From assembly GCF_024298765.1 (NCBI RefSeq), contig NZ_CP101210.1: DNA of 64,000 nt. The stretch is one strand, 5' to 3'. Below the pieces are notes generated by a model. The model was not told where the DNA came from and did no database searches. It was given only the letters and a program-made list of their open reading frames with translations. The stretch comes from Escherichia coli (lineage in GTDB: Bacteria > Pseudomonadota > Gammaproteobacteria > Enterobacterales > Enterobacteriaceae). Made by a program: the position numbers and the translations under genes. Below, one piece after another: positions 1-49,426 of the stretch (position 1 is the stretch's first letter; each line of letters starts with the position of its first letter).

Positions 1-182
1 CCCCATTCAAGAACAGCAAGCAGCATTGAGAACTTGGGAATCCAGTCTCTCTTCCACCTGCTGATCTGCGACTTATCAACTCCCACAGCTTCCGCTGTCT
101 TCTCAGTTCCAAGCATTGCGATTTTGTTAAGCAACGCACTCTCGATTCGTAGTGCCTCGTTGCGTTTGTTTGCACGAACCAT
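1..182 (-). CDS. cII: Lambda CII transcriptional activator, N-terminal part only (gene runs off window start)
   Basis: Reverse-strand translation from ATG at 182..180 gives MVRANKRNEALRIESALLNKIAMLGTEKTAEAVGVDKSQISRWKRDWIPKFSMLLAVLEW. Confidence 0.9.
   Translation of the reverse strand, partial: MVRANKRNEALRIESALLNKIAMLGTEKTAEAVGVDKSQISRWKRDWIPKFSMLLAVLEW
160..173 (+). promoter_or_regulatory. pRE region: CII-binding direct repeat TTGC-N6-TTGC overlapping cII start
   Basis: ttgcgtttgtttgc on the strand antisense to cII; matches the known CII recognition motif. Confidence 0.6.
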
Positions 183-261
183 ATGTAAGTATTTCCTTAG
201 ATAACAATTGATTGAATGTATGCAAATAAATGCATACACCATAGGTGTGGTTTAATTGGAT

Positions 262-293
262 GCCCTTTTTCAGGGCGGGGATGGGTAAGAGCG
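262..293 (-). promoter_or_regulatory. nutR (boxA CGCTCTTAC, boxB GCCCTGAAAAAGGGC) between cro and cII
   Basis: Reverse complement of 262..293 reads cgctcttacccatccccgccctgaaaaagggc. Confidence 0.75.
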
Positions 294-300
294 GGGTTAT

Positions 301-510
<210 letters not shown>

Positions 511-527
511 TTAGTACATGCAACTAT

Positions 528-591
528 TATCACCGCCAGAGGTAAAATAGTCAACACGCACGGTGTTAGATATTTATCCCTTGCGGTGATA
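528..591. promoter_or_regulatory. Right operator OR1 (528..544), OR2 (551..567), OR3 (575..591) with divergent pR and pRM
   Basis: Three 17-bp sites tatcaccgccagaggta, caacacgcacggtgtta, tatcccttgcggtgata between cro and cI. Confidence 0.88.
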
Positions 592-598
592 GATTTAA

Positions 599-1315
<717 letters not shown>

Positions 1316-1442
1316 TAGGAAGTAAGTTTTATGTTGACGGCACAGTCAACTTGGCATAGATTAATTAAACCAAGCCCAGCCCCGTTCGCAGACAATTGTT
1401 AATATCTGCATAACGGCTCTGGGCTATTTTTTTGGGACTCTT

Positions 1443-2300
1443 ATGAAGAAAGCAGCAATTTTAATTGATGCGGGTTTTTTCATGCAGCGTGTTCATGCTA
1501 CGCATCGTAAACACTTCGCCGAGCATGAACTGACTGCGCAATGCATAATGAAAGTAATATGGTCAATGGTTCTTTCCCATCTTAATGGAAAACGTCAATC
1601 ACAAGAACGTAGGGAACCGCTTGAGCTTTATAGAATTTACTTCTATGACTGTCCACCACTCGACATTCAAACACGCCTTCCACTTCCTGAGCCTGGCAAT
1701 AAGACGCCTGGTCGCAAGAATTTCAAACTCGAAAAATCATATATTCTGAGAACGGAGCTGCATGAAGAGTTAAGAAAAACTCGAAAAACAGCCTTAAGAT
1801 TAGGGAATCTTGTTGATAATAAGCGATGGCAACTAACTACATTCTCCCTTGATGCTCTGATGAAAGGAACGAAAAAATGGGATGAACTGACAAATGATGA
1901 TTTTTACTATGACATCAAACAAAAACAAGTTGATATCAAGCTAGGGATGGATATCACGACTTTAGCTTATGAAAAACTTGTTGATGTAATTGTCCTTGTT
2001 GCTGGGGACTCAGACTTTGTGCCTGCCGCCAAACACGCCAGAATTAAAGGTATTGATTTTATTCTTGATCCACTAAGACAGAATGTTACCCCATCACTGT
2101 CAGAGCACATTGATGGAGTTCAGTCATACAGCTTGATATCAGGACTTGCCGATGCTTTACATGTTGAGCCAGACCCGGCACCTGACTGGTGGGAAGATCG
2201 AAAAAAAGGCAAGCCTAGGGGAAAAAACAATAGCGGTAAACGCAGGTATGGAAACACTCAAGCTGAGTCTGCAAAGAAACATCAAAGAAATAAACGATAA
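1443..2300 (+). CDS. NYN/LabA-like PIN-fold predicted nuclease with Lys/Arg-rich C-terminal tail; occupies the rexA-rexB position
   Basis: 285-aa ORF with ATG start; motifs AAILIDAGFF, VDIKLGMD and VLVAGDSDFVPAAKHARIKGIDFILD resemble NYN acidic motifs; does not match my recollection of RexA; AT-rich. Confidence 0.75.
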   Translation: MKKAAILIDAGFFMQRVHATHRKHFAEHELTAQCIMKVIWSMVLSHLNGKRQSQERREPLELYRIYFYDCPPLDIQTRLPLPEPGNKTPGRKNFKLEKSYILRTELHEELRKTRKTALRLGNLVDNKRWQLTTFSLDALMKGTKKWDELTNDDFYYDIKQKQVDIKLGMDITTLAYEKLVDVIVLVAGDSDFVPAAKHARIKGIDFILDPLRQNVTPSLSEHIDGVQSYSLISGLADALHVEPDPAPDWWEDRKKGKPRGKNNSGKRRYGNTQAESAKKHQRNKR

Positions 2301-2309
2301 TCCCATCAA

Positions 2310-2336
2310 CCCGGCCACCGAGCCGGGTTTTCTTTG
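2310..2336 (+). terminator. Rho-independent terminator after the NYN gene
   Basis: cccggc-caccga-gccggg hairpin followed by ttttctttg. Confidence 0.6.
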
Positions 2337-2491
2337 CCTCACGATCGCCCCACCTAAAAACACATAACCAATTGTATTTATTTTAAAATTAATAGGTGCA
2401 ACTCACTAAACAACGCAATTCTGATCTCTCGATCACCTCCCAAGCCACACAACCCTGCAAAAAATAAATCTATATAAAAAACATACAGATA

Positions 2492-2552
2492 ACCATCTGC
2501 GGTGATAAATTATCTCTGGCGGTGTTGACACAAATACCACTAGCGGTGATAC
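2492..2552 (+). promoter_or_regulatory. Left operator OL3 (2492..2508), OL2 (2511..2527), OL1 (2535..2551) with pL (-35 ttgaca 2525..2530, -10 gatact 2547..2552)
   Basis: aaccatctgcggtgata, tatctctggcggtgttg, taccactagcggtgata upstream of N. Confidence 0.88.
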
Positions 2553-2592
2553 TAAACACACCAGCAGGACGCACTAACCCACATGAAGGTGA

Positions 2593-2623
2593 TGCTCTTA
2601 AAAATTAAGCCCTGAAGAAGGGC
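2593..2623 (+). promoter_or_regulatory. nutL (boxA tgctcttaa, boxB gccctgaagaagggc)
   Basis: gatgctcttaaaaattaagccctgaagaagggc between pL and N. Confidence 0.8.
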
Positions 2624-2781
2624 AGCATTCAAAGCAGAAGGCTTTGGGGTGTGTGATACGAAACGAAACATTGGCCGGAAGTGCGAATCCGGATTAGCTG
2701 CAAATGAGCCAATCGTGGGGTGTTTTCGTTCAGGACTACGACTCCCACACACCACCAAAGCTAACTGACAAGAGAATCCAG

Positions 2782-3679
<898 letters not shown>

Positions 3680-3802
3680 TTAAAAGACAGGCATACTAAT
3701 AAACACTGCACTGTGTATTTATTCCAACGAGTGAATACACGGAGCAATGTCGCTCGTAACTAAACAGGAGCCGACTTGTTCTGATTATTGGAAATCTTCT
3801 TT

Positions 3803-3829
3803 GCCCTCCAGTGTGAGGGCGATTTTTTA
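3803..3829 (+). terminator. Rho-independent terminator upstream of ea10 (tL1-like)
   Basis: gccctc-cagtgt-gagggc hairpin followed by gattttttat. Confidence 0.5.
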
Positions 3830-3848
3830 TCTATGAGGATATGAATAG

Positions 3849-4217
3849 GTGTCAAACATCAAAAAATACATCATTGATTACGACTGGAAAGCATCAATAG
3901 AAATTGAAATCGACCATGACGTAATGACAGAGGAAAAACTTCACCAGATTAATAATTTCTGGTCAGACTCTGAATACCGACTCAATAAACACGGCTCTGT
4001 ATTAAATGCTGTATTAATCATGCTGGCGCAACATGCTCTGCTTATAGCAATTTCAAGCGACTTAAATGCATATGGTGTTGTGTGTGAGTTCGACTGGAAT
4101 GATGGAAATGGTCAGGAAGGATGGCCTCCAATGGATGGTAGCGAAGGAATAAGAATTACCGATATCGATACATCAGGAATATTTGATTCAGATGATATGG
4201 CTATCAAGGCCGCCTGA
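3849..4217 (+). CDS. ea10: Ea10-like protein (122 aa)
   Basis: GTG-initiated ORF MSNIKKYIIDYDWKASIEIEIDHDVMTEEKLHQINNFWSD...; position collinear with lambda ea10. Confidence 0.8.
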   Translation: MSNIKKYIIDYDWKASIEIEIDHDVMTEEKLHQINNFWSDSEYRLNKHGSVLNAVLIMLAQHALLIAISSDLNAYGVVCEFDWNDGNGQEGWPPMDGSEGIRITDIDTSGIFDSDDMAIKAA

Positions 4218-4289
4218 GTGCGGCTTTACCGCATACCAATAACGCTTCACTCGAGGCGTTTTTCGTTATGTATAAATAAGGAGCACACC

Positions 4290-4430
4290 ATGCAATATGC
4301 CATTGCAGGGTGGCCTGTTGCTGGCTGCCCTTCCGAATCTTTACTTGAACGAATCACCCGTAAATTACGTGACGGATGGAAACGCCTTATCGACATACTT
4401 AATCAGCCAGGAGTACCCAAAAATGGATAA
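4290..4430 (+). CDS. cIII: CIII (FtsH inhibitor), 46 aa here because of an in-frame TAA
   Basis: [46 protein letters not shown] then TAA at 4428..4430. Confidence 0.85.
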   Translation: MQYAIAGWPVAGCPSESLLERITRKLRDGWKRLIDILNQPGVPKNG

Positions 4431-4566
4431 AAAACTTATGGCTATCCAGACAAAATTCACTATTGCCACTTTTATTGGCGATGAAAAGATGTTTCGTGAG
4501 GCCGTCGACGCTTATAAAAAATGGATATTAATACTGAAACTGAGATCAAGCAAAAGCATTCACTAA
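4423..4566 (+). CDS. kil: Kil (host-killing, FtsZ inhibitor), 47 aa
   Basis: [47 protein letters not shown] overlapping cIII end and gam start as in lambda. Confidence 0.8.
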
Positions 4567-4937
4567 CCCCCTTTCCTGTTTTCCTAATCAGCCCGGCATT
4601 TCGCGGGCGATATTTTCACAGCTATTTCAGGAGTTCGGCCATGAACGCTTATTACATTCAGGATCGTCTTGAGGCTCAGAGCTGGGCGCGTCACTACCAG
4701 CAGATAGCCCGTGAAGAGAAAGAGGCAGAACTGGCAGACGACATGGAAAAAGGCCTGCCCCAGCACCTGTTTGAATCGCTATGCATCGATCATTTGCAAC
4801 GCCACGGGGCCAGCAAAAAAGCCATTACCCGTGCGTTTGATGACGATGTTGAGTTTCAGGAGCGCATGGCAGAACACATCCGGTACATGGTTGAAACCAT
4901 TGCTCACCATCAGGTTGATATTGATTCAGAGGTATAA
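4521..4937 (+). CDS. gam: Gam (RecBCD inhibitor)
   Basis: 138-aa [64 protein letters not shown]... Confidence 0.95.
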
Positions 4938-4942
4938 AACGG

Positions 4943-5728
4943 ATGAGTACAGCACTCGCAACGCTGGCAGGGAAGCTGGCTGAACGTGTCGGCATGGATT
5001 CTGTCGACCCACAGGAACTGATCACCACTCTTCGCCAGACGGCATTTAAAGGCGATGCCAGCGATGCGCAGTTCATCGCATTGTTGATCGTCGCCAACCA
5101 GTACGGCCTTAATCCGTGGACGAAAGAAATTTACGCCTTCCCTGACAAGCAGAACGGCATCGTTCCGGTGGTGGGCGTTGATGGCTGGTCCCGTATCATC
5201 AATGAAAACCAGCAGTTTGATGGCATGGACTTTGAGCAGGACAATGAATCATGTACATGCCGGATTTACCGCAAGGACCGTAATCATCCGATCTGCGTTA
5301 CCGAGTGGATGGATGAATGCCGCCGCGAACCATTCAAAACCCGCGAAGGCAGAGAAATCACCGGACCGTGGCAGTCGCATCCCAAACGGATGTTACGGCA
5401 TAAAGCCATGATTCAGTGTGCCCGTCTGGCCTTCGGATTTGCTGGTATCTATGACAAGGATGAAGCCGAGCGCATTGTCGAAAATACCGCATACACTGCA
5501 GAACGTCCGCCGGAACGCGACATCACTCCGGTTAACGATGAAACCATGCAGGAGATTAACACTATGCTGATTGCCCTGGACAAAACATGGGATGACGACT
5601 TATTGCCGCTCTGTTCCCAGATATTTCGCCGCGACATTCGCGCATCGTCAGAACTGACACAGGCCGAAGCAATGAAAGCTCTTGGATTCCTGAAACAGAA
5701 AGCCTCTGAACAGAAGGTGGCTGCATGA
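4943..5728 (+). CDS. bet: Bet (Red-beta single-strand annealing protein)
   Basis: 261-aa [69 protein letters not shown]... Confidence 0.97.
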
Positions 5729-6405
5729 CACCGGACATTATCCTGCAGCGTACCGGGATCGACGTGAGAGCTGTCGAACAGGGGGATGATGCATGGCACA
5801 AATTACGGCTCGGCGTCATCACCGCTTCAGAAGTTCACAACGTGATAGCAAAGCCCCGCTCAGGAAAGAAGTGGCCTGACATGAAAATGTCCTACTTCCA
5901 CACCCTGCTGGCTGAGGTTTGCACCGGTGTGGCTCCGGAAGTTAACGCTAAGGCGCTGGCCTGGGGAAAACAGTACGAGAACGACGCCAGAACCCTCTTT
6001 GAGTTCACTTCCGGCGTTAATGTTACTGAATCCCCGATCATCTATCGCGACGAAAGTATGCGCACCGCCTGCTCTCCCGATGGTTTATGCAGTGACGGCA
6101 ACGGCCTTGAACTGAAATGCCCGTTTACCTCCCGGGATTTCATGAAGTTCCGGCTCGGTGGTTTCGAGGCCATAAAATCGGCTTACATGGCCCAGGTGCA
6201 GTACAGCATGTGGGTGACGCGAAAAGATGCCTGGTACTTTGCCAACTATGACCCACGAATGAAGCGTGAAGGCCTGCATTATGTCGTGGTTGAGCGGGAT
6301 GAAAATTACATGGCGAGTTTTGACGAGATGGTGCCGGAGTTCATCGAAAAAATGGACGAGGCACTGGCTGAAATTGGTTTTGTATTTGGGGAGCAATGGC
6401 GATGA
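5725..6405 (+). CDS. exo: Exo (lambda exonuclease, Red-alpha)
   Basis: 226-aa [68 protein letters not shown]... Confidence 0.97.
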
Positions 6406-6584
6406 CGCATCCTCACGATAATATCCGGGTAGGCGCGATCACTTTCGTCTACTCCATTACAAAGCGAGGCTGGGTATTTCCCGGCCTTTCTGTTATCAGA
6501 AATCCCCTGAAAGCACAGCGGCTGGCTGAGGAGATAAATAATAAACGGGGAGCTGTATGCACAAAGCATCTCCCGTTGAGTTAA
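6396..6584 (+). CDS. Lambda orf60a-like small protein
   Basis: [58 protein letters not shown]... immediately after exo. Confidence 0.6.
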
Positions 6585-6748
6585 GAACGAGTATCGAGAT
6601 GGCACATAGCCTCGCTCAAATTGGAGTCAGGTTTGTGCCAATACCAGTAGAAACAGACGAAGAATTTCATACGTTAGCCGCATCCCTTTCACAAAAGCTG
6701 GAAATGATGGTGGCGAAAGCAGAAGCAGATGAGAGAGACCAGGTATGA
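6557..6748 (+). CDS. Lambda orf63-like small protein
   Basis: 63-aa [66 protein letters not shown]. Confidence 0.6.
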   Translation: MHKASPVELRTSIEMAHSLAQIGVRFVPIPVETDEEFHTLAASLSQKLEMMVAKAEADERDQV

Positions 6749-6824
6749 CAACCACTGAATGCATTTTTCTGGCAGCGGGCTTCATATTCTGTGTGCTTAT
6801 GCTTGCCGACATGGGGCTTGTTCA

Positions 6825-7040
6825 ATGACACCTCAGCAAGAAAACGCCCTTCGCAGCATTGCCCGTCAGGCTAATTCTGAAATCAAAAAAGCCAGACAGC
6901 AGTTTCCGGATAAAAACGTCGATGACATTTGCCGTAGCGTACTAAAGAAGCACCGCGAAACGGTAACGCTGATGGGATTCACACCGACTCATTTAAGCCT
7001 GGCGATCGGCATGTTGAACGGCGTCTTTAAGGAACGGTGA
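6825..7040 (+). CDS. Lambda orf61-like small protein
   Basis: ORF from ATG 6825 MTPQQENALRSIARQANSEIKKARQQFPDKNVDDICRSVLKKHRETVTLMGF...; start choice uncertain. Confidence 0.5.
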   Translation: MTPQQENALRSIARQANSEIKKARQQFPDKNVDDICRSVLKKHRETVTLMGFTPTHLSLAIGMLNGVFKER

Positions 7041-7138
7041 ACATGAAAAGCAAAATCATCAGGGAGCTACAGGCTCCTTTTTTATTATTCGCATTCACCC
7101 TCAAGCGTATTAACCAACAATTCAGGGATTAATGAAAG

Positions 7139-7360
7139 ATGGCAGACATCATTGATTCAGCATCAGAAATTGAAGAATTACAGCGCAACACAGCAATAAA
7201 AATGCGCCGCCTGAACCACCAGGCTATATCTGCCACTCATTGTTGTGAGTGTGGCGATCCGATAGATGAACGAAGACGCTTGGCCGTTCAGGGTTGTCGG
7301 ACTTGTGCAAGTTGCCAGGAGGATCTGGAACTTATCAGTAAACAGAGAGGTTCGAAGTGA
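7139..7360 (+). CDS. TraR/DksA-family C4 zinc-finger protein (lambda orf73-like)
   Basis: 73-aa ORF with CCECGDPIDERRRLAVQGCRTCASC four-cysteine finger. Confidence 0.8.
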   Translation: MADIIDSASEIEELQRNTAIKMRRLNHQAISATHCCECGDPIDERRRLAVQGCRTCASCQEDLELISKQRGSK

Positions 7361-7905
7361 GCGAAATTAACTCTCAGGCACTGCGTGAGGCGGCAGTAGC
7401 AATTGAAACAGTAGCAACACCTCAAAAATTGCTGGCATTTCGTATGAAAGTCACACCTCAGGTTGTGCTGGCTCTACTGGATGAACGAGATGCATTAAAT
7501 GAACGCCTAGCCGAACTGGAGGCTGATTTAGCAGGGCTGGCCGAAGACCACCAGAAAGCGACTGAGTCAATTAAGCAGGCTGATGCAGCTGTTAAGTTGG
7601 CACACGAGAAGTTTTCGGCGCTGGCGGCGGAGAATGAGCTGGCTCGTAAAGCAGTTCAGGAATTCTGCGATGTTGTTGGCGACAGCACCGAGGTTATCTG
7701 CGAGGAGATTGGGAGAGATGGTGTTCTGGTTATTTTGGAGGCCATGAAGGCAACAGGAAATATGCCAGCCACCGATGCTTTCCTGGCTGAAGTACGGGCG
7801 CAGGGGGTGGAGATGATGCGCGAACATCCATCAATCAAACTTTGCTCTTTGACGCACATATGTGATGAGTTAGCCGCCCAGCTTCGCAAAGGAGGCAACC
7901 AGTGA
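7357..7905 (+). CDS. ea22: Ea22-like protein (182 aa, coiled-coil)
   Basis: 182-aa ORF collinear with lambda ea22; MSEINSQALREAAVAIETVATPQKLLAF... Confidence 0.7.
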   Translation: MSEINSQALREAAVAIETVATPQKLLAFRMKVTPQVVLALLDERDALNERLAELEADLAGLAEDHQKATESIKQADAAVKLAHEKFSALAAENELARKAVQEFCDVVGDSTEVICEEIGRDGVLVILEAMKATGNMPATDAFLAEVRAQGVEMMREHPSIKLCSLTHICDELAAQLRKGGNQ

Positions 7906-8035
7906 CTGGACATGCAGCAATCCTCGACATGTGCTGTGGCAGTCGCATGTTCTGGTTAGATAAGAATGACGAACGGGCGAGATAAGCGATCGGTTAAGTG
8001 CTATAGTAATGCGCTTTTGTATTTATGGAGTGAAT

Positions 8036-8734
8036 ATGAAAAATATCCTACTGGCATCATTGTTAGTGGCATCGCCGGGTGCATTTGCAGCCAGCTTTGA
8101 CTGCCAAAAGGCTTCGACAGCAATCGAACATAAAATCTGCGATAACGAACGTCTGTCAAAATTAGACGAACAGCTTAGCTCTGCCTATTCTAGTGCCCTC
8201 AAAGGAAACCCAGAGAACGCAGACACCCTAAAAATGGTTCAACGTCAGTGGGTAAATATGCGTGGAAAACTCACTGATAATAAGGCTCTGGAGCTGGCTT
8301 ATCTTATCCAAATTAATGGCCTCAAAGGTTTGGGGAGTTCAGTCAGCGTAACAGCGGCCAATGACATACCCACGTCGGCGCAGAAACATTCTAAAGAGCA
8401 GGAAGATACAAGTAAGGCAGAAGCTAAGTCGGTCAAGAACGGCAATAAGCTAACCTTAGAGTCATTCCGAGCTAAATATGTAGAAGTAGATGGTGAGTAT
8501 TACAGCACGACATCCATTCCTAGAGGCAGTTCGTTCTTGTTCACTTGCGCTAGTCGTATTGCTGATGACCAAGTGAATATTTGGAAGAAACAGGCAGCCA
8601 AAGAGGGCAAAATCGACCTATTCTTTGAGGTTGAGAATCACTTACACACGGCTATGTTGAACGCCAATTTTCAGAAGTTGAATTCAGACCCTGCCAAAAG
8701 AGGTATTTGTAATCTGATTAACGCAGTGCCGTAA
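8036..8734 (+). CDS. Secreted protein with signal peptide and DUF1311/LprI-like N-terminal domain; replaces ea8.5
   Basis: MKNILLASLLVASPGAFAASFDCQKASTAIEHKICDNERLSKLDEQLSSAYSSALKG...QRQW; GGAG RBS before ATG 8036. Confidence 0.7.
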   Translation: MKNILLASLLVASPGAFAASFDCQKASTAIEHKICDNERLSKLDEQLSSAYSSALKGNPENADTLKMVQRQWVNMRGKLTDNKALELAYLIQINGLKGLGSSVSVTAANDIPTSAQKHSKEQEDTSKAEAKSVKNGNKLTLESFRAKYVEVDGEYYSTTSIPRGSSFLFTCASRIADDQVNIWKKQAAKEGKIDLFFEVENHLHTAMLNANFQKLNSDPAKRGICNLINAVP

Positions 8735-8744
8735 GTAAATTTAG

Positions 8745-8775
8745 GGCCACAGTTGTGGCCTTAAATATTTTTTTC
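8745..8775 (+). terminator. Putative rho-independent terminator after the DUF1311 gene
   Basis: ggccac-agtt-gtggcc hairpin followed by T-rich run. Confidence 0.45.
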
Positions 8776-8970
8776 AGCCTTTTCTTATTTGTAATAAGCA
8801 GTACTTGGTAGTGCTTATAAAACAGAATAAAAAATATATGACTTTGGCGATTACCCAGTAAAGATATTCGAAATAAATGTAAATATCGACAATGAATAAC
8901 TATCCTCGCACTCGCGGGGATTTCTTTTATCTGAACTCGCTACGGCGAGTTTTTTTTATGGAGATGATAA

Positions 8971-9138
8971 ATGCACTTCCGAGTCACAGGTGAATGGAAT
9001 GGAGAACCATTCAACAGAGTTATCGAAGCCGAGAACATCAGCGACTGCTATGACCACTGGATGCTGTGGGCGCAGATAGCACATGCAGACGTAACCAATA
9101 TTCGAATTGAAGAACTGAAAGAACACCAAGCCGCCTGA
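8971..9138 (+). CDS. Lambda orf55-like small protein (below 60-aa ORF-track cutoff)
   Basis: MHFRVTGEWNGEPFNRVIEAENISDCYDHWMLWAQIAHADVTNIRIEELKEHQAA; collinear with lambda orf55 upstream of xis; followed by gccgcc..ggcggc hairpin + T-run. Confidence 0.65.
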   Translation: MHFRVTGEWNGEPFNRVIEAENISDCYDHWMLWAQIAHADVTNIRIEELKEHQAA

Positions 9139-9177
9139 TGGCGGTTTTTTCTTGCGTGTAATTGCGGAGACTTTGCG

Positions 9178-9396
9178 ATGTACTTGACACTTCAGGAGTG
9201 GAACGCACGCCAGCGACGCCCAAGAAGCCTTGAAACAGTTCGTCGATGGGTACGCGAGTGCAGGATATTCCCTCCTCCGGTTAAGGATGGAAGAGAGTAT
9301 CTGTTCCACGAATCAGCGGTAAAGGTTGACTTAAATCGACCAGTAACAGGTAGCCTTTTGAAGAGGATCAGAAATGGGAAGAAGGCGAAGTCATGA
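9178..9396 (+). CDS. xis: Excisionase Xis
   Basis: 72-aa ORF MYLTLQEWNARQRRPRSLETVRRWVRECRIFPPPVKDGREYLFHESAVKVDLNRPVTGSLLKRIRNGKKAKS. Confidence 0.96.
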   Translation: MYLTLQEWNARQRRPRSLETVRRWVRECRIFPPPVKDGREYLFHESAVKVDLNRPVTGSLLKRIRNGKKAKS

Positions 9397-10444
9397 GCGC
9401 CGGGATTTACCCCCTAACCTTTATATAAGAAACAATGGATATTACTGCTACAGGGACCCAAGGACGGGTAAAGAGTTTGGATTAGGCCGAGACAGGCGAA
9501 TCGCAATCACTGAAGCTATACAGGCCAACATTGAGTTATTTTCAGGACACAAACACAAGCCTCTGACAGCGAGAATCAACAGTGATAATTCCGTTACGTT
9601 ACATTCATGGCTTGATCGCTACGAAAAAATCCTGGCCAGCAGAGGAATCAAGCAGAAGACACTCATAAATTACATGAGCAAAATTAAAGCAATAAGGAGG
9701 GGTCTGCCTGATGCTCCACTTGAAGACATCACCACAAAAGAAATTGCGGCAATGCTCAATGGATACATAGACGAGGGCAAGGCGGCATCAGCCAAGTTAA
9801 TCAGATCAACACTGAGCGATGCATTCCGAGAGGCTATAGCTGAAGGCCATATAACAACAAACCCGGTCGCAGCCACTCGCGCTGCAAAATCAGAGGTAAG
9901 GAGATCAAGACTTACGGCTGACGAATACCTGAAAATTTATCAAGCAGCAGAATCATCACCATGTTGGCTTAGACTTGCAATGGAACTGGCTGTTGTTACC
10001 GGGCAGCGAGTTGGTGATTTATGCGAAATGAAGTGGTCTGATATCGTAGATGGATATCTTTATGTCGAGCAAAGCAAAACAGGCGTAAAAATTGCCATCC
10101 CAACAACATTGCATGTTGATGCTCTCGGGATATCAATGAAGGAAACACTTGATAAATGCAAAAAGATTCTTGGCGGAGAAACCATAATTGCATCTACTCG
10201 TCGTGAACCGCTTTCATCCGGCACAGTATCAAGGTATTTTATGCGCGCACGAAAAGCATCAGGTCTTTCCTTCGAAGGGGATCCGCCTACCTTTCACGAG
10301 TTGCGCAGTTTGTCTGCAAGACTCTATGAGAAGCAGATAAGCGATAAGTTTGCTCAACATCTTCTCGGGCATAAGTCGGACACCATGGCATCACAGTATC
10401 GTGATGACAGAGGCAGGGAGTGGGACAAAATTGAAATCAAATAA
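9374..10444 (+). CDS. int: Integrase Int (tyrosine recombinase)
   Basis: 356-aa ORF MGRRRSHERRDLPPNLYIRNNGYYCYRDPRTGKEFGLGRDRRIAITEAIQANIELFSG... overlapping xis end. Confidence 0.97.
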   Translation: MGRRRSHERRDLPPNLYIRNNGYYCYRDPRTGKEFGLGRDRRIAITEAIQANIELFSGHKHKPLTARINSDNSVTLHSWLDRYEKILASRGIKQKTLINYMSKIKAIRRGLPDAPLEDITTKEIAAMLNGYIDEGKAASAKLIRSTLSDAFREAIAEGHITTNPVAATRAAKSEVRRSRLTADEYLKIYQAAESSPCWLRLAMELAVVTGQRVGDLCEMKWSDIVDGYLYVEQSKTGVKIAIPTTLHVDALGISMKETLDKCKKILGGETIIASTRREPLSSGTVSRYFMRARKASGLSFEGDPPTFHELRSLSARLYEKQISDKFAQHLLGHKSDTMASQYRDDRGREWDKIEIK

Positions 10445-22843: not shown

Positions 22844-23011
<168 letters not shown>

Positions 23012-35949: not shown

Positions 35950-36025
35950 TGGTGGGTCGTGCAGGATTCGAACCTGCGACCAATTGATTAAAAGTCAACT
36001 GCTCTACCAACTGAGCTAACGACCC
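35950..36025 (-). tRNA. lysQ: tRNA-Lys (UUU)
   Basis: Reverse complement is GGGTCGTTAGCTCAGTTGGTAGAGCAGTTGACTTTTAATCAATTGGTCGCAGGTTCGAATCCTGCACGACCCACCA; symbol assigned by order. Confidence 0.93.
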
Positions 36026-36058
36026 CTTGCGGGATTATGCTGCTTTAATCATTCAGGA

Positions 36059-36134
36059 TGGTGGGTCGTGCAGGATTCGAACCTGCGACCAATTGATTAA
36101 AAGTCAACTGCTCTACCAACTGAGCTAACGACCC
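36059..36134 (-). tRNA. lysZ: tRNA-Lys (UUU)
   Basis: Identical 76-nt tRNA-Lys sequence; symbol by order. Confidence 0.93.
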
Positions 36135-36182
36135 ATACGGGTGTTACCTGAAAGATTTCTACTCGGAACCAATGTTTAAAAT

Positions 36183-36258
36183 TGGTGGGTCGTGCAGGAT
36201 TCGAACCTGCGACCAATTGATTAAAAGTCAACTGCTCTACCAACTGAGCTAACGACCC
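36183..36258 (-). tRNA. lysY: tRNA-Lys (UUU)
   Basis: Identical 76-nt tRNA-Lys sequence; symbol by order. Confidence 0.93.
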
Positions 36259-36261
36259 GAG

Positions 36262-36337
36262 TGGTGGGTGATGACGGGATCGAACCGCCGACCCCCTCCT
36301 TGTAAGGGAGGTGCTCTCCCAGCTGAGCTAATCACCC
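36262..36337 (-). tRNA. valZ: tRNA-Val (UAC)
   Basis: Reverse complement is GGGTGATTAGCTCAGCTGGGAGAGCACCTCCCTTACAAGGAGGGGGTCGGCGGTTCGATCCCGTCATCACCCACCA. Confidence 0.93.
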
Positions 36338-36388
36338 GATACTGCGCTGGATACTACAAACTACTTCCACCGAACCCACAGTAATTAG

Positions 36389-36464
36389 TGGTGGGTCGTG
36401 CAGGATTCGAACCTGCGACCAATTGATTAAAAGTCAACTGCTCTACCAACTGAGCTAACGACCC
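36389..36464 (-). tRNA. lysW: tRNA-Lys (UUU)
   Basis: Identical 76-nt tRNA-Lys sequence; symbol by order. Confidence 0.93.
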
Positions 36465-36466
36465 GG

Positions 36467-36542
36467 TGGTGGGTGATGACGGGATCGAACCGCCGACCCC
36501 CTCCTTGTAAGGGAGGTGCTCTCCCAGCTGAGCTAATCACCC
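36467..36542 (-). tRNA. valT: tRNA-Val (UAC)
   Basis: Identical 76-nt tRNA-Val sequence; symbol by order. Confidence 0.93.
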
Positions 36543-36577
36543 GATACTACGCTGGATACTACAACTAACTATGTTAG

Positions 36578-36595
36578 TGGTGGGTCGTGCAGGAT
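36578..36595 (-). pseudogene. Orphan 3' fragment of tRNA-Lys (last 18 nt ATCCTGCACGACCCACCA) in the lysT-valT spacer
   Basis: tggtgggtcgtgcaggat matches only the 3' end of the tRNA-Lys genes; upstream sequence is unrelated. Confidence 0.7.
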
Positions 36596-36677
36596 GACTC
36601 GACTTCGTCTCGCCCTTCGGGCCGTTGCTGACGCAACGTTATCCTTCACGTTTTACTACCGCGTCCACCTTAGCGAT

Positions 36678-36753
36678 TGGTGGGTCGTGCAGGATTCGAA
36701 CCTGCGACCAATTGATTAAAAGTCAACTGCTCTACCAACTGAGCTAACGACCC
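36678..36753 (-). tRNA. lysT: tRNA-Lys (UUU)
   Basis: Identical 76-nt tRNA-Lys sequence; first gene of the operon. Confidence 0.93.
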
Positions 36754-42728: not shown

Positions 42729-43022
42729 TTAAAAGAAGAAGAAAATCAGCCCGACAATGAGAACAATATCGGCAAGCAATGGGCAAAAAATCCCTTGCCA
42801 GAGAACCTTCTGCGGACGAAAGCCCACGCCGTGAATCACACCAGCACAGACGGCCCACATCAGCAGTAAACCATGCCAGATTTCCAGTTCACTGGTCTTC
42901 GCGGCGAAACGTGATGGGTCCCAAAACATACATCCTGCTAACAGAAGTGCCATCACGAAGGAAAGCGCCCGCAGGGGGCGCTTGTCCATTACCGCATACA
43001 AGGTTGCGATAATCTTACTCAT
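42729..43022 (-). CDS. ybgE: YbgE small membrane protein
   Basis: 97-aa ORF downstream of cydX. Confidence 0.9.
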   Translation of the reverse strand: MSKIIATLYAVMDKRPLRALSFVMALLLAGCMFWDPSRFAAKTSELEIWHGLLLMWAVCAGVIHGVGFRPQKVLWQGIFCPLLADIVLIVGLIFFFF

Positions 43023-43135
43023 CAGATGTCTTCTTGACCGGCTTTGCCTGATTCGACGTGCTCAAGCGCCAGCGCGGTGATTACCCCAAACGAACAGGCA
43101 AGAAGCGTTCCCAGAATCCATGCGAAATACCACAT
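43022..43135 (-). CDS. cydX: CydX, 37-aa cytochrome bd subunit
   Basis: Reverse-strand ORF MWYFAWILGTLLACSFGVITALALEHVESGKAGQEDI; below track cutoff. Confidence 0.88.
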   Translation of the reverse strand: MWYFAWILGTLLACSFGVITALALEHVESGKAGQEDI

Positions 43136-43149
43136 TTTTAGCTCCTTAC

Positions 43150-44289
43150 TTAGTACAGAGAGTGGGTGTTACGTTCAATATCTTCTTTGGTGATACGACC
43201 GAACATTTTCCAGTAACACCAGGCGGTGTAGAGCAGAATGATCGGTACCAGAACCACCGCAACCCAGGTCATGACGTTAAGCGTCAGCTGGCTGGAAGTT
43301 GCATCCCACATTGTCAGACTTGCGTTCATCATGGTGCTGGACGGCATCACAAACGGGAACATTGCGATACCGGCAGTCAGGATGATGCAGGCCAGCGTCA
43401 GGGAGGAGAACACAAACGCCCACGCGGCTTTATCCATACGTGCAGTCAGGATGGTCAGCAGCGGCAGAACCACACCCAGTGCCGGAATAGCCCACAGAAT
43501 TGGCGTGTTGTTGAAGTTAACCAGCCATGCGCCAGCTTCACGAACCACTTCTTTATTCAGCGGGTTAGAGGCTGCGTAATGGTCCATTGTCGATTTCACG
43601 ACATAACCATCGATACCGTACATCACCCATACGCCAGCCAGTGCGAAGCAGACCAGCGTCACCAGTGCCGCCACCTGAGCCGTTGCACGGGTACGCAGGT
43701 GCAGTTCGCCCACGGTACGCATTTGCAGATAGGTTGCGCCCTGAGTAATGATCATCCCTACGCTCACCACACCTGCCAGCAGGCCGAACGGGTTAAGCAG
43801 CTGGAAGAAGTTACCGGTGTAGTACAGACGCAGATATTCATCAACGTTGAATGGTACGCCCTGCAACAGGTTACCGAACGCTACACCAATCACCAGCGGC
43901 GGAACGAAGCTACCAATGAAGATGCCCCAGTCCCACATGTTACGCCAGCGGGTTTCTTCAATCTTGGAGCGGTAATCAAAACCGACCGGACGGAAGAACA
44001 AAGACGCCAGCACGAGGATCATCGCCACATAGAAGCCGGAGAACGCAGCGGCATAGACCATCGGCCAGGCAGCAAACAGTGCGCCGCCTGCGGTGATCAG
44101 CCAAACCTGGTTACCGTCCCAGTGTGGTGCGATGGAGTTAATCATAATTCGACGCTCGGTGTCGTTACGACCGAGGAAACGGGTGAGCATGCCCACCCCC
44201 ATGTCGAAACCGTCAGTGACTGCAAAACCAATCAGCAGAACGCCAACCAGCAGCCACCAGATAAAACGCAATACTTCATAATCGATCAT
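43150..44289 (-). CDS. cydB: Cytochrome bd-I oxidase subunit II
   Basis: 379-aa ORF MIDYEVLRFIWWLLVGVLLIGFAVTDGFDMGVG. Confidence 0.96.
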   Translation of the reverse strand: MIDYEVLRFIWWLLVGVLLIGFAVTDGFDMGVGMLTRFLGRNDTERRIMINSIAPHWDGNQVWLITAGGALFAAWPMVYAAAFSGFYVAMILVLASLFFRPVGFDYRSKIEETRWRNMWDWGIFIGSFVPPLVIGVAFGNLLQGVPFNVDEYLRLYYTGNFFQLLNPFGLLAGVVSVGMIITQGATYLQMRTVGELHLRTRATAQVAALVTLVCFALAGVWVMYGIDGYVVKSTMDHYAASNPLNKEVVREAGAWLVNFNNTPILWAIPALGVVLPLLTILTARMDKAAWAFVFSSLTLACIILTAGIAMFPFVMPSSTMMNASLTMWDATSSQLTLNVMTWVAVVLVPIILLYTAWCYWKMFGRITKEDIERNTHSLY

Positions 44290-44304: not shown

Positions 44305-45873
44305 TTAGCGTGCCGGCTGAGTAGTCGTGGAAGACTGCTCAAAGTGATAGCGACCGGTTTTCAGGCTGCTTGGGCCGAGGCGTGCAAACTTGAACATTAA
44401 GAACAATTCTGCCACCAGGAACAGGGTATACAGGCCGCAAATCAGCACCATTGAGAAGATGAGATCGCCTGCGGTCAGTGACGAATTCGCCACAGCTGTC
44501 GGCAGCACTTCACCGATAGCCCACGGTTGGCGGCCATATTCAGCCACGAACCAGCCCGCTTCTACAGCAATCCACGGCAGCGGAATACCGTACAGCGCGG
44601 CGCGCAGCAGCCATTTTTTCTCGCCAATGCGGTTGCGGATGACACTCCAGAAAGAGAGCGCAATGATTGCCAGCAGCAGGAAGCCACACGCCACCATGAT
44701 ACGGAACGCGAAGTACAGCGGCGCTACACGCGGAATGGAGTCTTTGGTTGCCTGTTGAATCTGAGCTTCAGTCGCATCAGCCACGTTTGGCGTATAGCGT
44801 TTCAGCAGCAGACCGTAACCGAGATCTTTCTTCATGCTATTGAACTGGTCACGAACGGCCTGGTCAGTAGAACCAGAACGCAGTTGTTCGAGCAGAGAGT
44901 ACGCCTTCATCCCGTTACGAATGCGTTCTTCATGCTGCACCATCAGTTCTTTCAGGCCGATAACTGGAGTATCCACGGAACGCGTTGCAATGATGCCCAG
45001 CGCGTAAGGGATCTGGATCGCAAATTTGTTCGTCTCCTCTTCCTGATCAGGAATGCCGAACAGAGTAAAGGCAGCAGGTGCAGGTTGCGTTTCCCACTCG
45101 GCTTCGATAGCAGCCAGTTTGGTTTTCTGCACGTCGCCCATTTCGTAACCGGATTCATCACCCAGAACAATAACAGACAGAACGGCAGCCATACCGAAGC
45201 TGGCAGCGATAGCAAAGGAGCGTTTAGCGAAGGCGAAGTCACGACCTTTCAGCATATACCATGCGCTGATACCGAGGATGAACATTGCGCCAGTCACATA
45301 ACCAGAAGCTACGGTGTGAACGAATTTCACCTGAGCAACCGGGTTAAGCACCAGCTCGGAGAAGCTCACCATCTCCATACGCATAGTTTCAAAGTTGAAA
45401 TCGGACGCGATTGGGTTTTGCATCCAGCCGTTTGCAACCAGAATCCACAGTGCGGACAGGTTTGAACCGAGCGCCACCAGCCAGGTGACACACATATGCT
45501 GAACTTTACCCAGACGATCCCAACCGAAGAAGAACAGACCTACAAAGGTGGATTCGAGGAAGAAGGCCATCAGACCTTCGATTGCCAGCGGCGCACCGAA
45601 GATATCCCCTACATAGTGGGAATAGTAAGACCAGTTAGTCCCGAACTGGAACTCCATGGTCAGACCGGTAGCCACACCCAGAGCAAAGTTGATACCAAAC
45701 AACTTGCCCCAGAACTTGGTCATATCTTTATAAATCTGTTTGCCGGAAAGAACGTAGACCGTTTCCATAATGGCCAGCAGGAACGCCATACCGAGCGTCA
45801 GTGGCACAAAAAGGAAGTGGTACATCGCGGTCAAGGCAAACTGTAAGCGCGACAGTTCGACTATATCTAACAT
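44305..45873 (-). CDS. cydA: Cytochrome bd-I oxidase subunit I
   Basis: [70 protein letters not shown]; 522 aa. Confidence 0.96.
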
Positions 45874-47201
45874 CATGACTCCTTGCTCATCGCATGAAGA
45901 CTCCGAGAGTGAACCCCGTTAGAAAGGGTCACACGCATGCCCCAATACAAAATTATTTGCTCGCCTCTATCGTTGCCATTTCATCAAAAGAGGAAAAGAC
46001 AATGATAAAAAAGTTACAAATGTGTTAATGAATAAACCAAATTGATCCCGTAATTATATTACGCCGCAAAATCCTTACAATAAACAGGTTTTTATTGAGC
46101 AAATTTGCATTTTTCGACAGTGATCAATTTATAGCGAAATTGTCACGATCTCACCAATTTGATCTACAACAATTTATCGTGTTTTGCAGATTTTTTTCAA
46201 GAATTAAAAATTGATTTATATCAAAATCAACCATATATGTTAATTATGTGTGAATCATGAGCCACTGGTAACTTTATTGTTAATTTATTGTAACAAAATA
46301 GCACAGTAAAATTACCCACATGGAAATATATAGATAAAAAACCAGTATTTTATTTAACAGAGCCGCTTTATCGACTTTTTATAATACTAATTAGTTAGAG
46401 TAGCTACTTTATTGCCATTTTACATAACATATTTTTATCAACGTTAATTGATTGTTGTCTTTATGAGCAACGTACTGTAAATCCGTCACTTATTGTTTCA
46501 TTGGTAATAATCACAAGAAGAAATAGATACCTTAGGTATAGTCAGATGGAACAAGGATTTTCAAAATAAAATATATATGGTATTAATATTTCCCGATCTG
46601 TATTCAATGATTAGCTCAAAGATTGAAAATCAAGAGAAATTGTTATAGCAGTGATACGAAACAACAAAACGGAATGATTGCCAGCCGTTAGAAAACACCG
46701 GACACTCTCGTGTAAAAAGCTACCCTGTCTATGGATATAGCGATATCAACTCATCAAGCGTGGACTGAATGATATTCAGCTCCATATGGGCGGCAACCTG
46801 GAGGATAAACATGATTTCGCCGTTGGAATCAAGGTTGTTCTGCAATATCTACCAGACTGCTTCAATTTATCTGTTTTGGCAGTGCCATAATCTTAATTTA
46901 ACTATTTGAAGATGATGATATTGTAAGATGCCAGAAATTTAGTAATCTGGAGAACCATGTTTACGATCACTAAATATTAAAGTAATAGTCGATAATTCAG
47001 TAACACATCGGGTAATATAATGTATTGATACATAATCATATTAAAAATTCGTGATTAAATAACATAAGAATATGTTTTATTATCATTAAAAAACCTTCTA
47101 TTTCCATCATCCTTAAGATAATAGAACAGTGAATGATGGATAACTTCACCAGAAAAACAAGCAAGAATATAAAATTTAAAAATATGATTCCACTTTCATT
47201 G

Positions 47202-48317
47202 TTATAAAATGGCATCGTGAAGAGCGAGTTGATAATACTGCAATGCATCAGCGTCCTGTCCAGCAGTTTCATAAATTTTGGCAATGTTATAATAGGAGTT
47301 AGCGCGCATTGTCGCCGCATTTGCTCCACTGGCTAACGAGATCGCTTTACGATTTGCCCAAATTGCTTCCGCGATGTTGCCATTTTTCTGATACGCCAGC
47401 CCCAGGTTACTAAATGCCTGTCCGTAATTGCCGTCTAATTCTGTTGCCTGTTGGAAGAGTTGAATGGCTTGCTCAAGTTGACCGGTTTTATAAACAGCTT
47501 CACCTTCGCGATTATATTTTCTTGCCAGTTGAGTATCTCCACTGTTTTGCATCGCAGGTGAAGCCGGAGTTGAAGAACCCGTCGCAGGCATTATCACAGT
47601 GGCTAAATCCCTGACGCCTAATGTGGTGTCGTTAAAATTGGCGCTGGTAACAGAGTTGATATCTTCAAACTCGCCGTTTGGATTGAGTTTAAACACGGTC
47701 CAGATGTTCCCTCGTTTTCCAGCAGGGACACTATAACTACGCACCAGGGAGCTCCCTACATAAACAAACACTTTTGCCTTACTGGCAGAGAGATAATTAC
47801 TGTTGGGCAACCCTTTGTTGCTATAGTCCTGCACGGCATAGATGTAACTTTCGCCAAAATGCTTTTTGCTGATAGTGACAGTTTCTGATCCATAGCTATC
47901 CGTATCATCAACATCCAGATTAGCATCAGTCCCCTCTTTACTATCAAAATAGATATGTCCGCCAGGGAAGATCAAATGTGAATCAAGATCAAAAGGCTTT
48001 TCGCCCCAGCTCAAAACTACACGCATGCCATCCAGACTAGTCATTGCCGGACTAATCGCATAAGTCATGCCAGCACACGAACATTTGACCACCAGATTAG
48101 AATAGCCCTCTTTTTTGACGATCAATAAAGCATCTTGATCATCAGCAAATGTAGAACCCAGATTAACGCTGCCCGATGCATTTGTGGTTCCAGAAACAGA
48201 TTGTGCGCCATTGCGTTGCAGCGTCACCGATACTCCCTCAATGCGTTTATCTTTCACTGTCGCACTTAAAATATCGATATTTACATCGGCCGCATAAACG
48301 TCCGAATTTACACCCAT
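47202..48317 (-). CDS. Hypothetical protein with C-terminal TPR repeats in the position K-12 has mngRAB; N-terminal start uncertain
   Basis: 371-aa ORF; C-terminal ...AIQLFQQATELDGNYGQAFSNLGLAYQKNGNIAEAIWANRKAISL...ALQYYQLALHDAIL. Confidence 0.6.
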   Translation of the reverse strand: MGVNSDVYAADVNIDILSATVKDKRIEGVSVTLQRNGAQSVSGTTNASGSVNLGSTFADDQDALLIVKKEGYSNLVVKCSCAGMTYAISPAMTSLDGMRVVLSWGEKPFDLDSHLIFPGGHIYFDSKEGTDANLDVDDTDSYGSETVTISKKHFGESYIYAVQDYSNKGLPNSNYLSASKAKVFVYVGSSLVRSYSVPAGKRGNIWTVFKLNPNGEFEDINSVTSANFNDTTLGVRDLATVIMPATGSSTPASPAMQNSGDTQLARKYNREGEAVYKTGQLEQAIQLFQQATELDGNYGQAFSNLGLAYQKNGNIAEAIWANRKAISLASGANAATMRANSYYNIAKIYETAGQDADALQYYQLALHDAIL

Positions 48318-48454
48318 CAGGGCCAGAGCAACCGGCAGAACAATTTTCTTCTTGTATAAATGCTTTTACAGAACGGAGAGGGGATATTTTGCCGGGCATT
48401 ATTGCGCAGAAGATGGGAGAAAAGCAGTGGGCAAACTTTTCAGATTAGTGCCCG

Positions 48455-48556
48455 AATAAAAAAGGCCATCATAAGATGGCCAACCATGTCGAAACCGACA
48501 GCCCTTCGCCCCTCCTGTAGAGGGAAGCGGCGAGGGCTATTTCTTATTACAGATAT
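48455..48556 (-). ncRNA. sdhX: SdhX (RybD)-like 3'UTR sRNA of the sdh-suc operon with intrinsic terminator
   Basis: About 100 nt downstream of sucD stop ending in ggccatc..gatggcc hairpin plus T-run; boundaries approximate. Confidence 0.55.
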
Positions 48557-49426
48557 TTATTTCAGAACAGTTTTCAGTGCTTCACCGATATCCGCCAGGC
48601 TGCGAACGGTTTTCACGCCTGCGGCTTCCAGAGCAGCGAATTTCTCATCCGCAGTCCCTTTACCACCGGCAATGATCGCACCTGCGTGACCCATACGTTT
48701 GCCTTTCGGCGCAGTCACACCAGCGATGTAACCCACAACTGGCTTGGTAACGTGCTCCTTGATGTACGCCGCTGCTTCTTCTTCAGCGCTACCGCCGATC
48801 TCACCGATCATCACGATCGCTTCGGTCTGCGGATCTTTTTCGAACATTTCGAGGATGTCGATAAAGTTAGAGCCAGGGATCGGGTCGCCGCCGATACCAA
48901 CGCAGGTCGACTGACCGAAACCGTAATCCGTGGTCTGTTTAACCGCTTCATAGGTCAGCGTACCGGAACGGGAAACGATACCCACTTTACCCGGTTTGTG
49001 AATGTGACCCGGCTGGATACCGATTTTGCATTCCCCCGGGGTGATAACGCCTGGGCAGTTCGGGCCGATCATACGAACGCCTGCTTCATCCAGTTTCACT
49101 TTCACCGTCAGCATATCCAGCGTCGGGATGCCTTCAGTGATGGTGATAATCAGTTTGATGCCTGCATCGATAGCTTCCAGAATGGAGTCTTTGCAGAACG
49201 GTGCTGGTACGTAGATAACAGAGGCGGTAGCGCCAGTAGCAGCAACAGCTTCACGCACGGTGTTGAACACTGGCAGGCCGAGGTGGGTAGTACCGCCTTT
49301 ACCTGGGGTTACGCCGCCAACCATTTTAGTGCCGTATGCAATGGCCTGTTCTGAGTGGAAAGTCCCCTGGCTACCGGTAAAGCCCTGGCAGATAACCTTG
49401 GTGTTTTTATCAATTAAAATGGACAT
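48557..49426 (-). CDS. sucD: Succinyl-CoA synthetase alpha subunit
   Basis: 289-aa [48 protein letters not shown]. Confidence 0.97.

Follow-up and report, generated by a model that had tools for sequence, protein, structure and literature searches.

The 32-codon open reading frame (ORF) found upstream of cydA in this Escherichia coli window (the window being the whole stretch of DNA analysed, 64,000 nucleotides) very probably arose by chance from a deletion scar and is most likely without function. Judging from alignment, the 645-bp scar (46540-47185) is the remainder of an island that was once inserted between cydA and the neighbouring gene for a tetratricopeptide-repeat (TPR) protein. The stretch around the ORF, read by sequence comparison, is almost certainly a deletion scar composed of pseudogene fragments of glmS and hutU, unannotated but ordinary. 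The biological importance of the locus is small. It does provide a clean example of how a convincing Shine-Dalgarno motif and ORF can arise from decayed coding sequence, and it advises caution in predicting small ORFs in intergenic, seemingly AT-rich spacers.

Relics of glmS and hutU in the cydA-TPR spacer

The window is oriented in reverse of the usual K-12 map, and its first 48.9 kb differ from E. coli strain 104 (NZ_CP029164.1) at 8 bases. It belongs to the mng-less E. coli type, in which sucD, the TPR gene and cydA stand in this order; the mngR-mngA-mngB genes that K-12-type strains have between sucD and cydA are missing. The gene neighbourhood is as follows:

43150-44289, minus strand: cydB
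44305-45876, minus strand: cydA
47202..48317, minus strand: intact gene for a TPR protein, between the scar and sucD (RefSeq annotation; Pfam TPR hits)
48557-49426, minus strand: sucD

The 32-codon ORF falls within the spacer of 1326 bp that separates cydA from the TPR gene. It is on the strand opposite cydA, with 935 bp between it and the start of cydA, and it converges with the TPR gene. The sequence-only reading had placed it in an AT-rich cydA upstream region. This description fits the spacer as a whole, with a GC content of 31.5%, but not the setting of the ORF itself, given its strand and distance from cydA and a core at 46697-46890 that reaches 43.8% GC. The flanks of the core have 25-33% GC, and this difference was the first hint of former coding sequence.

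To find relatives of the stretch we used 46700-46990 as the query in a sensitive blastn search of 5426 complete E. coli genomes, 1105 of which carry it at 97-100% identity. Such carriers account for ~20% of the complete E. coli genomes; among them are IHE3034, ST131, Nissle 1917, 536 and ATCC 25922. In 86 other E. coli genomes, query bases 122-186 (window 46821-46885) match annotated hutU with 81.5% identity over 65 nt (E 3e-7 against 28 Gb). One of these 86, EC12, contains an intact island at exactly the site of the scar in the window. There, cydA is followed by two hypothetical genes and by glmS-glmL-glmE, methylaspartate ammonia-lyase and further genes, all reading away from cydA. Next come a LysR regulator and HAL-hutG-hutI-hutD-permease-hutU, the latter reading towards cydA, and then rtcB, mngB-mngA, mngR and sucD. 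Local alignment of the window against a 37-kb EC12 stretch showed that the two are colinear at 97% identity up to 46539 and that the sucD flank is 99.5-100% identical from 48456 onward. The scar consists of four pieces:

46540..46717, plus strand: relic of the 5′ flank of the lost glmS operon, confined to 1106 carrier genomes, with 87.6% identity in the divergent strain E69
46718..46820, plus strand: pseudogene fragment of glmS (methylaspartate mutase S subunit), corresponding to codons ~58-102 of 149
46821..46885, minus strand: pseudogene fragment of hutU (urocanate hydratase), codons 23-44, with two in-frame stops
46894..47185, no strand assigned: relic of the hutU 5′ intergenic region (the hutU-rtcB spacer of EC12), 64% identical over 297 columns (E 3e-23, local blastn)

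The glmS piece was matched at both the DNA and protein levels. Blastn aligned 46720-46751 to EC12 glmS at 78% (32 nt) and 46752-46832 at 73.6% (87 columns), while tblastn of GlmS residues 69-102 against 46720-46821 gave 19/35 identities (E 2e-6), with the relic reading LPCLWI*RYQLIKRGLNDIQLHMGGNL-EDKHDFA (asterisk, stop). The relic shares with EC12 GlmS (WP_000710397.1) the stretch RGL-DI-L--GGNL--KHDFA, and its position at the cydA end of the island and its direction, away from cydA, are those of glmS in EC12. By contrast with that gene, it has no intact reading frame: ~45 of the 149 codons are present, at ~74% DNA identity, and they are broken by an in-frame stop, a frameshift and a 3-nt deletion, with the first codons missing and a truncation at codon ~102. 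It is not a gene.

The hutU piece is shorter. Residues 24-42 of HutU (HCKNWQIEAAYRMLQNNLD) aligned by tblastn to HCQNR*IEAVW*ILQNNLD in the relic, with 12/19 identities and 2 stops. Relative to EC12 hutU (WP_000042922.1), both the similarity and the synteny of the 5′ spacer are preserved, as the relic of this spacer follows the fragment in the expected order, but only 22 of 565 codons are left and the start and rest of the gene have been deleted. Between the hutU fragment and the spacer relic ~315 bp are missing, including the hutU start and first 22 codons. The glmS and hutU fragments adjoin at ~46820/46821, where two convergent operon heads meet, and ~18.5 kb of EC12-equivalent sequence is missing between these heads. 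The alignments thus establish the homology of each piece and the junction. Identity between the relics and the EC12 island amounts to only 64-82%. The island that was lost was therefore a diverged copy, and an EC12-like gene content between the two heads is what we infer for it.

A second genome preserves an intermediate state. E69 (CP089930.1), a divergent strain labelled E. coli, was found by scanning species-representative genomes with the TPR protein and contains a less eroded scar with the identical glmS/hutU junction. In E69, the counterpart of 46540..46717 continues directly into the glmS ribosome binding site (RBS) and ATG. E69 keeps 91 bp absent from the window (...ACTCTCTGCCTTACAAAGGATTCCCCATGAAGAAAGCAACACATGTGATTGGCGTT), which are nearly identical to the RBS, ATG and first ten codons of EC12 glmS, and this settles the identity of glmS. 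The E69 relic reads MKKATHVIGV joined directly to DAIVLSPIYGYSDID, the latter corresponding to GlmS 56-70. To the right of window position ~47020, the E69 sequence is unrelated to that of the window.

The sequence-only reading had also raised the idea that the small ORFs were remnants of the genes that once occupied the mng position. That they derive from decayed fragments of real genes is correct, but these genes are glmS and hutU, parts of an island situated between cydA and mngB in other E. coli. Derivation from mngR, mngA or mngB, the occupants of the interval in K-12, might be expected since the window has no mngRAB and its sucD flank is, up to 48456, the same as in mng-carrying strains. 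The pieces, however, match glmS and hutU, and tblastn of MngB, MngR and RtcB against 46300-48560 gave chance-level matches (E 0.7 or worse), leaving an mng origin with a negligible probability. Searches of the same interval with EC12 GlmL and the two hypothetical proteins encoded between cydA and glmS likewise returned chance-level matches only.

Origin of the open frame and its Shine-Dalgarno motif

The plus strand around the ORF start reads ctGGAGGataaacATG, in which GGAGG (46800-46804) is separated by a 6-nt spacer from ATG at 46811. The 32 sense codons that follow encode MISPLESRLFCNIYQTASIYLFWQCHNLNLTI, and the stop codon ends at 46909. The strong Shine-Dalgarno and 32-codon frame reported from the sequence alone are thus present, with the motif at a distance from the start codon that falls in the 5-9 nt range and an open frame behind it. 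Also borne out is its unannotated status, as the RefSeq annotation at the ORF is "none" in every matching record listed. In the ORF listing the same frame is longer (46 codons, 46769..46909), with an in-frame ATG 14 codons upstream of 46811. The features that overlap the glmS/hutU junction are:

46800..46804, plus strand: "Shine-Dalgarno" GGAGG, within the glmS-frame CTG GAG GAT (Leu-Glu-Asp)
46811..46909, plus strand: 32-codon ORF, +1 out of frame relative to the glmS relic, crossing the junction after 10 nt and antisense to the hutU relic thereafter
46786..46890, plus strand: 34-codon ORF (MGGNLEDKHDFA...), the glmS frame itself, its first 12 codons being GlmS relic
46729..46845, minus strand: 38-codon ORF initiated at TTG, its codons 1-6 (LQNNLD) corresponding to HutU 37-42 and the remainder antisense to the glmS relic

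Comparison with intact glmS reveals where both signals come from. The EC12 gene reads CTG GTG GTC GGA AAA CAT GAC TTC GC (L V V G K H D F A), and the window relic CTG GAG GAT AAA CAT GAT TTC GC (L E D K H D F A); the alignment of relic and EC12 glmS at GGAGG sets CTGGTGGTCGGAAAACATGAC against CTGGAG---GATAAACATGAT. The ATG at 46811 is cAT-Gat of the His-Asp pair in the glmS frame (46811 minus 46720 is 91, or 1 mod 3). Beyond the hutU fragment, the ORF extends into the former hutU leader.

The ATG of the 32-codon ORF on the plus strand and that of a 27-codon ORF on the minus strand share the CATG palindrome at 46810-46813; thus, both "starts" derive from one His codon of the glmS relic. The 27-codon peptide (MFILQVAAHMELNIIQSTLDELISLYP), which had been taken for a protein fragment, is indeed encoded, as the tail of the 38-codon ORF, but is itself antisense to the glmS relic; the match to HutU is found only just upstream of it, in LQNNLD and the stop-interrupted stretch. 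We considered, and rejected, an assignment of the whole minus-strand peptide (ELNIIQSTLDEL...) to HutU (CFDKILESLKNL), as part of it is antisense to glmS and HutU is represented only by LQNNLD and the stop-interrupted upstream stretch. The 38-codon and 34-codon ORFs are just as incidental in origin. In an exact look-up of four small peptides, the minus-strand 38-mer was the sole one ever called as a gene; it figures as an automatically called "hypothetical protein" in a few GenBank submissions, such as ECOK1_0731 of IHE3034, and is absent from RefSeq.

The choice of null model decides whether the motif and frame together exceed chance. When the 1.3-kb AT-rich spacer was shuffled by dinucleotides, GGAGG-N4-9-ATG with at least 32 codons behind it occurred in only 1% of the shuffles. 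For the whole 64-kb window, shuffles gave ~2.4 expected cases versus 5 observed, of which two are annotated gene starts and two are in-frame internal Met codons. The pattern is unusual locally because the stretch is former coding sequence. A second Shine-Dalgarno-like motif, ctGGAGaaccATG at 46948-46958, is located ~140 nt downstream within the relic hutU leader; the frame after it has 7 codons only (MFTITKY), and its ATG is GTG in strains 2A and SA186.

We infer the following order of events. The ancestor would have carried an EC12-like island between cydA and the TPR gene/sucD, with two converging operons, a rightward, glmS-led methylaspartate operon for glutamate fermentation and a leftward, hutU-led histidine-utilisation operon. 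A single deletion, which spans ~18.5 kb on the EC12 map, would have taken out everything between glmS codon ~103 and hutU codon ~23, so that the heads of the two operons came to face each other. Smaller deletions may subsequently have removed the hutU start and ~250 bp of the hutU leader and, in the window lineage only, a further 91 bp including the glmS RBS, ATG and first codons, and the relics presumably drifted afterwards. A 3-nt deletion and substitutions would have turned glmS CTG-GTG-GTC-GGA-AAA-CAT-GAC into CTG-GAG-GAT-AAA-CAT-GAT, which is GGAGG-N6-ATG when read out of frame. The open frame that follows consists of 10 nt of out-of-frame glmS relic and then of antisense hutU fragment and former leader. 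The scar also dates the loss: the methylaspartate/histidine-utilisation island had gone from the cydA-sucD interval before the carrier lineage and E69 separated.

Conservation and tests of function

If the ORF encoded a small protein, its start and frame should be under selection in the carriers. We found neither conservation of start and frame nor purifying selection. A variant alignment revealed that the start ATG is ACG (AAACATGAT to AAATACGAT) in 2A, AVS0096, FDAARGOS_1252 and SCU-124. When an exact match of a 43-nt probe was required, the ACG variant was present in 194 of 1106 carriers (17.5%), including Nissle 1917, and the ATG form in 910 of 1106. The other E. coli substitutions within the frame are all amino-acid-changing: CAG to AAG (Q to K), CAT to AAT (H to N) and, in HH45, GGA to GCG. 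E69 lacks the 15 nt (CTGGAGGATAAACAT) that hold both signals, therefore neither the "Shine-Dalgarno" nor the ATG is present there, and its frame corresponding to the 32-codon ORF also contains stops.

The rate of change points in the same direction. Scar segments of the window diverge from their E69 counterparts by 12.3-14.8%, with indels in addition, compared with 14.9% and 19.3% at four-fold degenerate sites of cydA and sucD, respectively, and only 5.7% in the cydA regulatory region (45877-46539). The scar is diverging at the neutral rate. These data speak against the proposal, made from the sequence alone, that the ORF may be a small protein.

A young, lineage-restricted small protein that arose de novo from pseudogene debris, with a fortuitous Shine-Dalgarno and ATG on a transcript from the surviving glmS-operon promoter, is the least improbable of the alternatives. 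The near-ideal, strong GGAGG-N6-ATG geometry, its rarity in local shuffles, the ATG form in the great majority of carriers and the former glmS operon 5′ flank still in place upstream (46540-46717) would all agree with it. The loss of the start in 194 carriers, the absence of both signals from E69, the exclusively amino-acid-changing substitutions and a divergence equal to that of four-fold degenerate sites do not. Moreover, a crude consensus scan predicted no sigma-70-like promoter on the plus strand of 46300-46811; over 46300-47300 it returned 5 promoter-like sites versus 5.7 expected and no terminator-like site. The scan is too crude to exclude a relic glmS promoter, which might persist within 46540-46717 and drive plus-strand transcription. 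Neither the 32-aa nor the 46-aa peptide was called as a gene in a collection of ~15 billion proteins, and the 32-aa peptide shows no transmembrane or other recognisable feature. Taken together, we regard such a small protein as improbable. The more specific version, a very young de novo gene in which the 3-nt deletion in the dead glmS fragment made a perfect Shine-Dalgarno and the surviving glmS-operon promoter provides transcription, is somewhat less probable again. Were it true, most B2/G-type E. coli would make the 32-aa peptide and strains of the Nissle 1917 type (ACG) would not; this natural ACG variant is a ready-made negative control for translation tests of the ORF. In the literature we found no ribosome-profiling study of the locus in a carrier strain, and nothing on the island or scar or on profiling of uropathogenic strains that bears on the locus. 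The reading we favour remains a by-product of the scar, and the ORF is probably not expressed.

The same window provides a useful contrast. CydX and AcrZ, encoded by cydX (43022-43135) and acrZ (22844-22993), are conserved, experimentally verified small proteins, of the kind that ribosome profiling or tagging has brought to light. The 32-codon ORF resembles them in length (15-50 aa class) and in having a Shine-Dalgarno-like motif suitably spaced from its ATG. Unlike these two RefSeq-annotated, conserved genes, however, it is unconserved within the carrier lineage, changes neutrally and is explained by the relics.

A leader peptide had also been suggested from the sequence alone; we considered a leader or upstream regulatory ORF of the cydABX operon, with which the position in the long spacer upstream of cydA would agree. 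Its strand and distribution refute this, and we give the idea essentially no weight. The ORF lies on the opposite strand, 935 bp from where cydA starts, and converges with the TPR gene. It is also outside the part of the spacer common to other E. coli, which ends at 46539, and ~80% of E. coli genomes, every one of which has cydA, lack its sequence.

It is very unlikely that the scar encodes a small RNA or other cis-acting element to which the ORF is incidental. The convergent relic operon heads might permit overlapping transcripts, an argument from their arrangement only. Yet a search of 45000-49000 against Rfam returned no match at E values up to 1, the predicted RNA fold of 46760-46920 is unremarkable (z = -0.87), and the consensus scan for terminators and the neutral divergence with indels described above give no sign of such an element.

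The sucD-TPR-cydA neighbourhood

The gene that borders the scar encodes a TPR protein of 371 aa, with Pfam TPR hits only in residues ~266-366 and no Pfam family in the N-terminal ~250 aa. Relatives are located between sucD and cydA in Pseudocitrobacter vendiensis (77% identity, there with mngB) and Enterobacter sp. BIGb0383, and several Pectobacterium species likewise have a relative (~64-65%) between these two genes. The arrangement is kept in Pseudocitrobacter, Enterobacter and Pectobacterium, which suggests that the sucD-TPR-cydA order is an old one in Enterobacterales. Remoter relatives (41-58%) are found in Pseudomonas, Nitrosomonadales and Campylobacterota genomes and in many Bacteroidota. 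In some strains the TPR gene is disrupted (AVS0096 has an internal stop, E69 an internal deletion), and in SA186 it is annotated with a longer frame.

The locus tags of strain 104 skip DDV95_RS21330 between cydA (RS21325) and the TPR gene (RS21335), and the skipped number may stand for a feature of the scar that a previous round of annotation had called and a later one dropped. Elsewhere in the window, positions 1-10444 comprise the left part of a lambda-like prophage (cII, cro, a cI-like LexA-family repressor, N, cIII, kil, gam, bet, exo, xis and int), the integrase end of which directly adjoins ybhC within the interval from the gal operon to that gene. Seven tRNA genes, five for Lys and two for Val, are located at 35950-36753 on the minus strand between nadA and cpoB, according to the annotation of strain 104.
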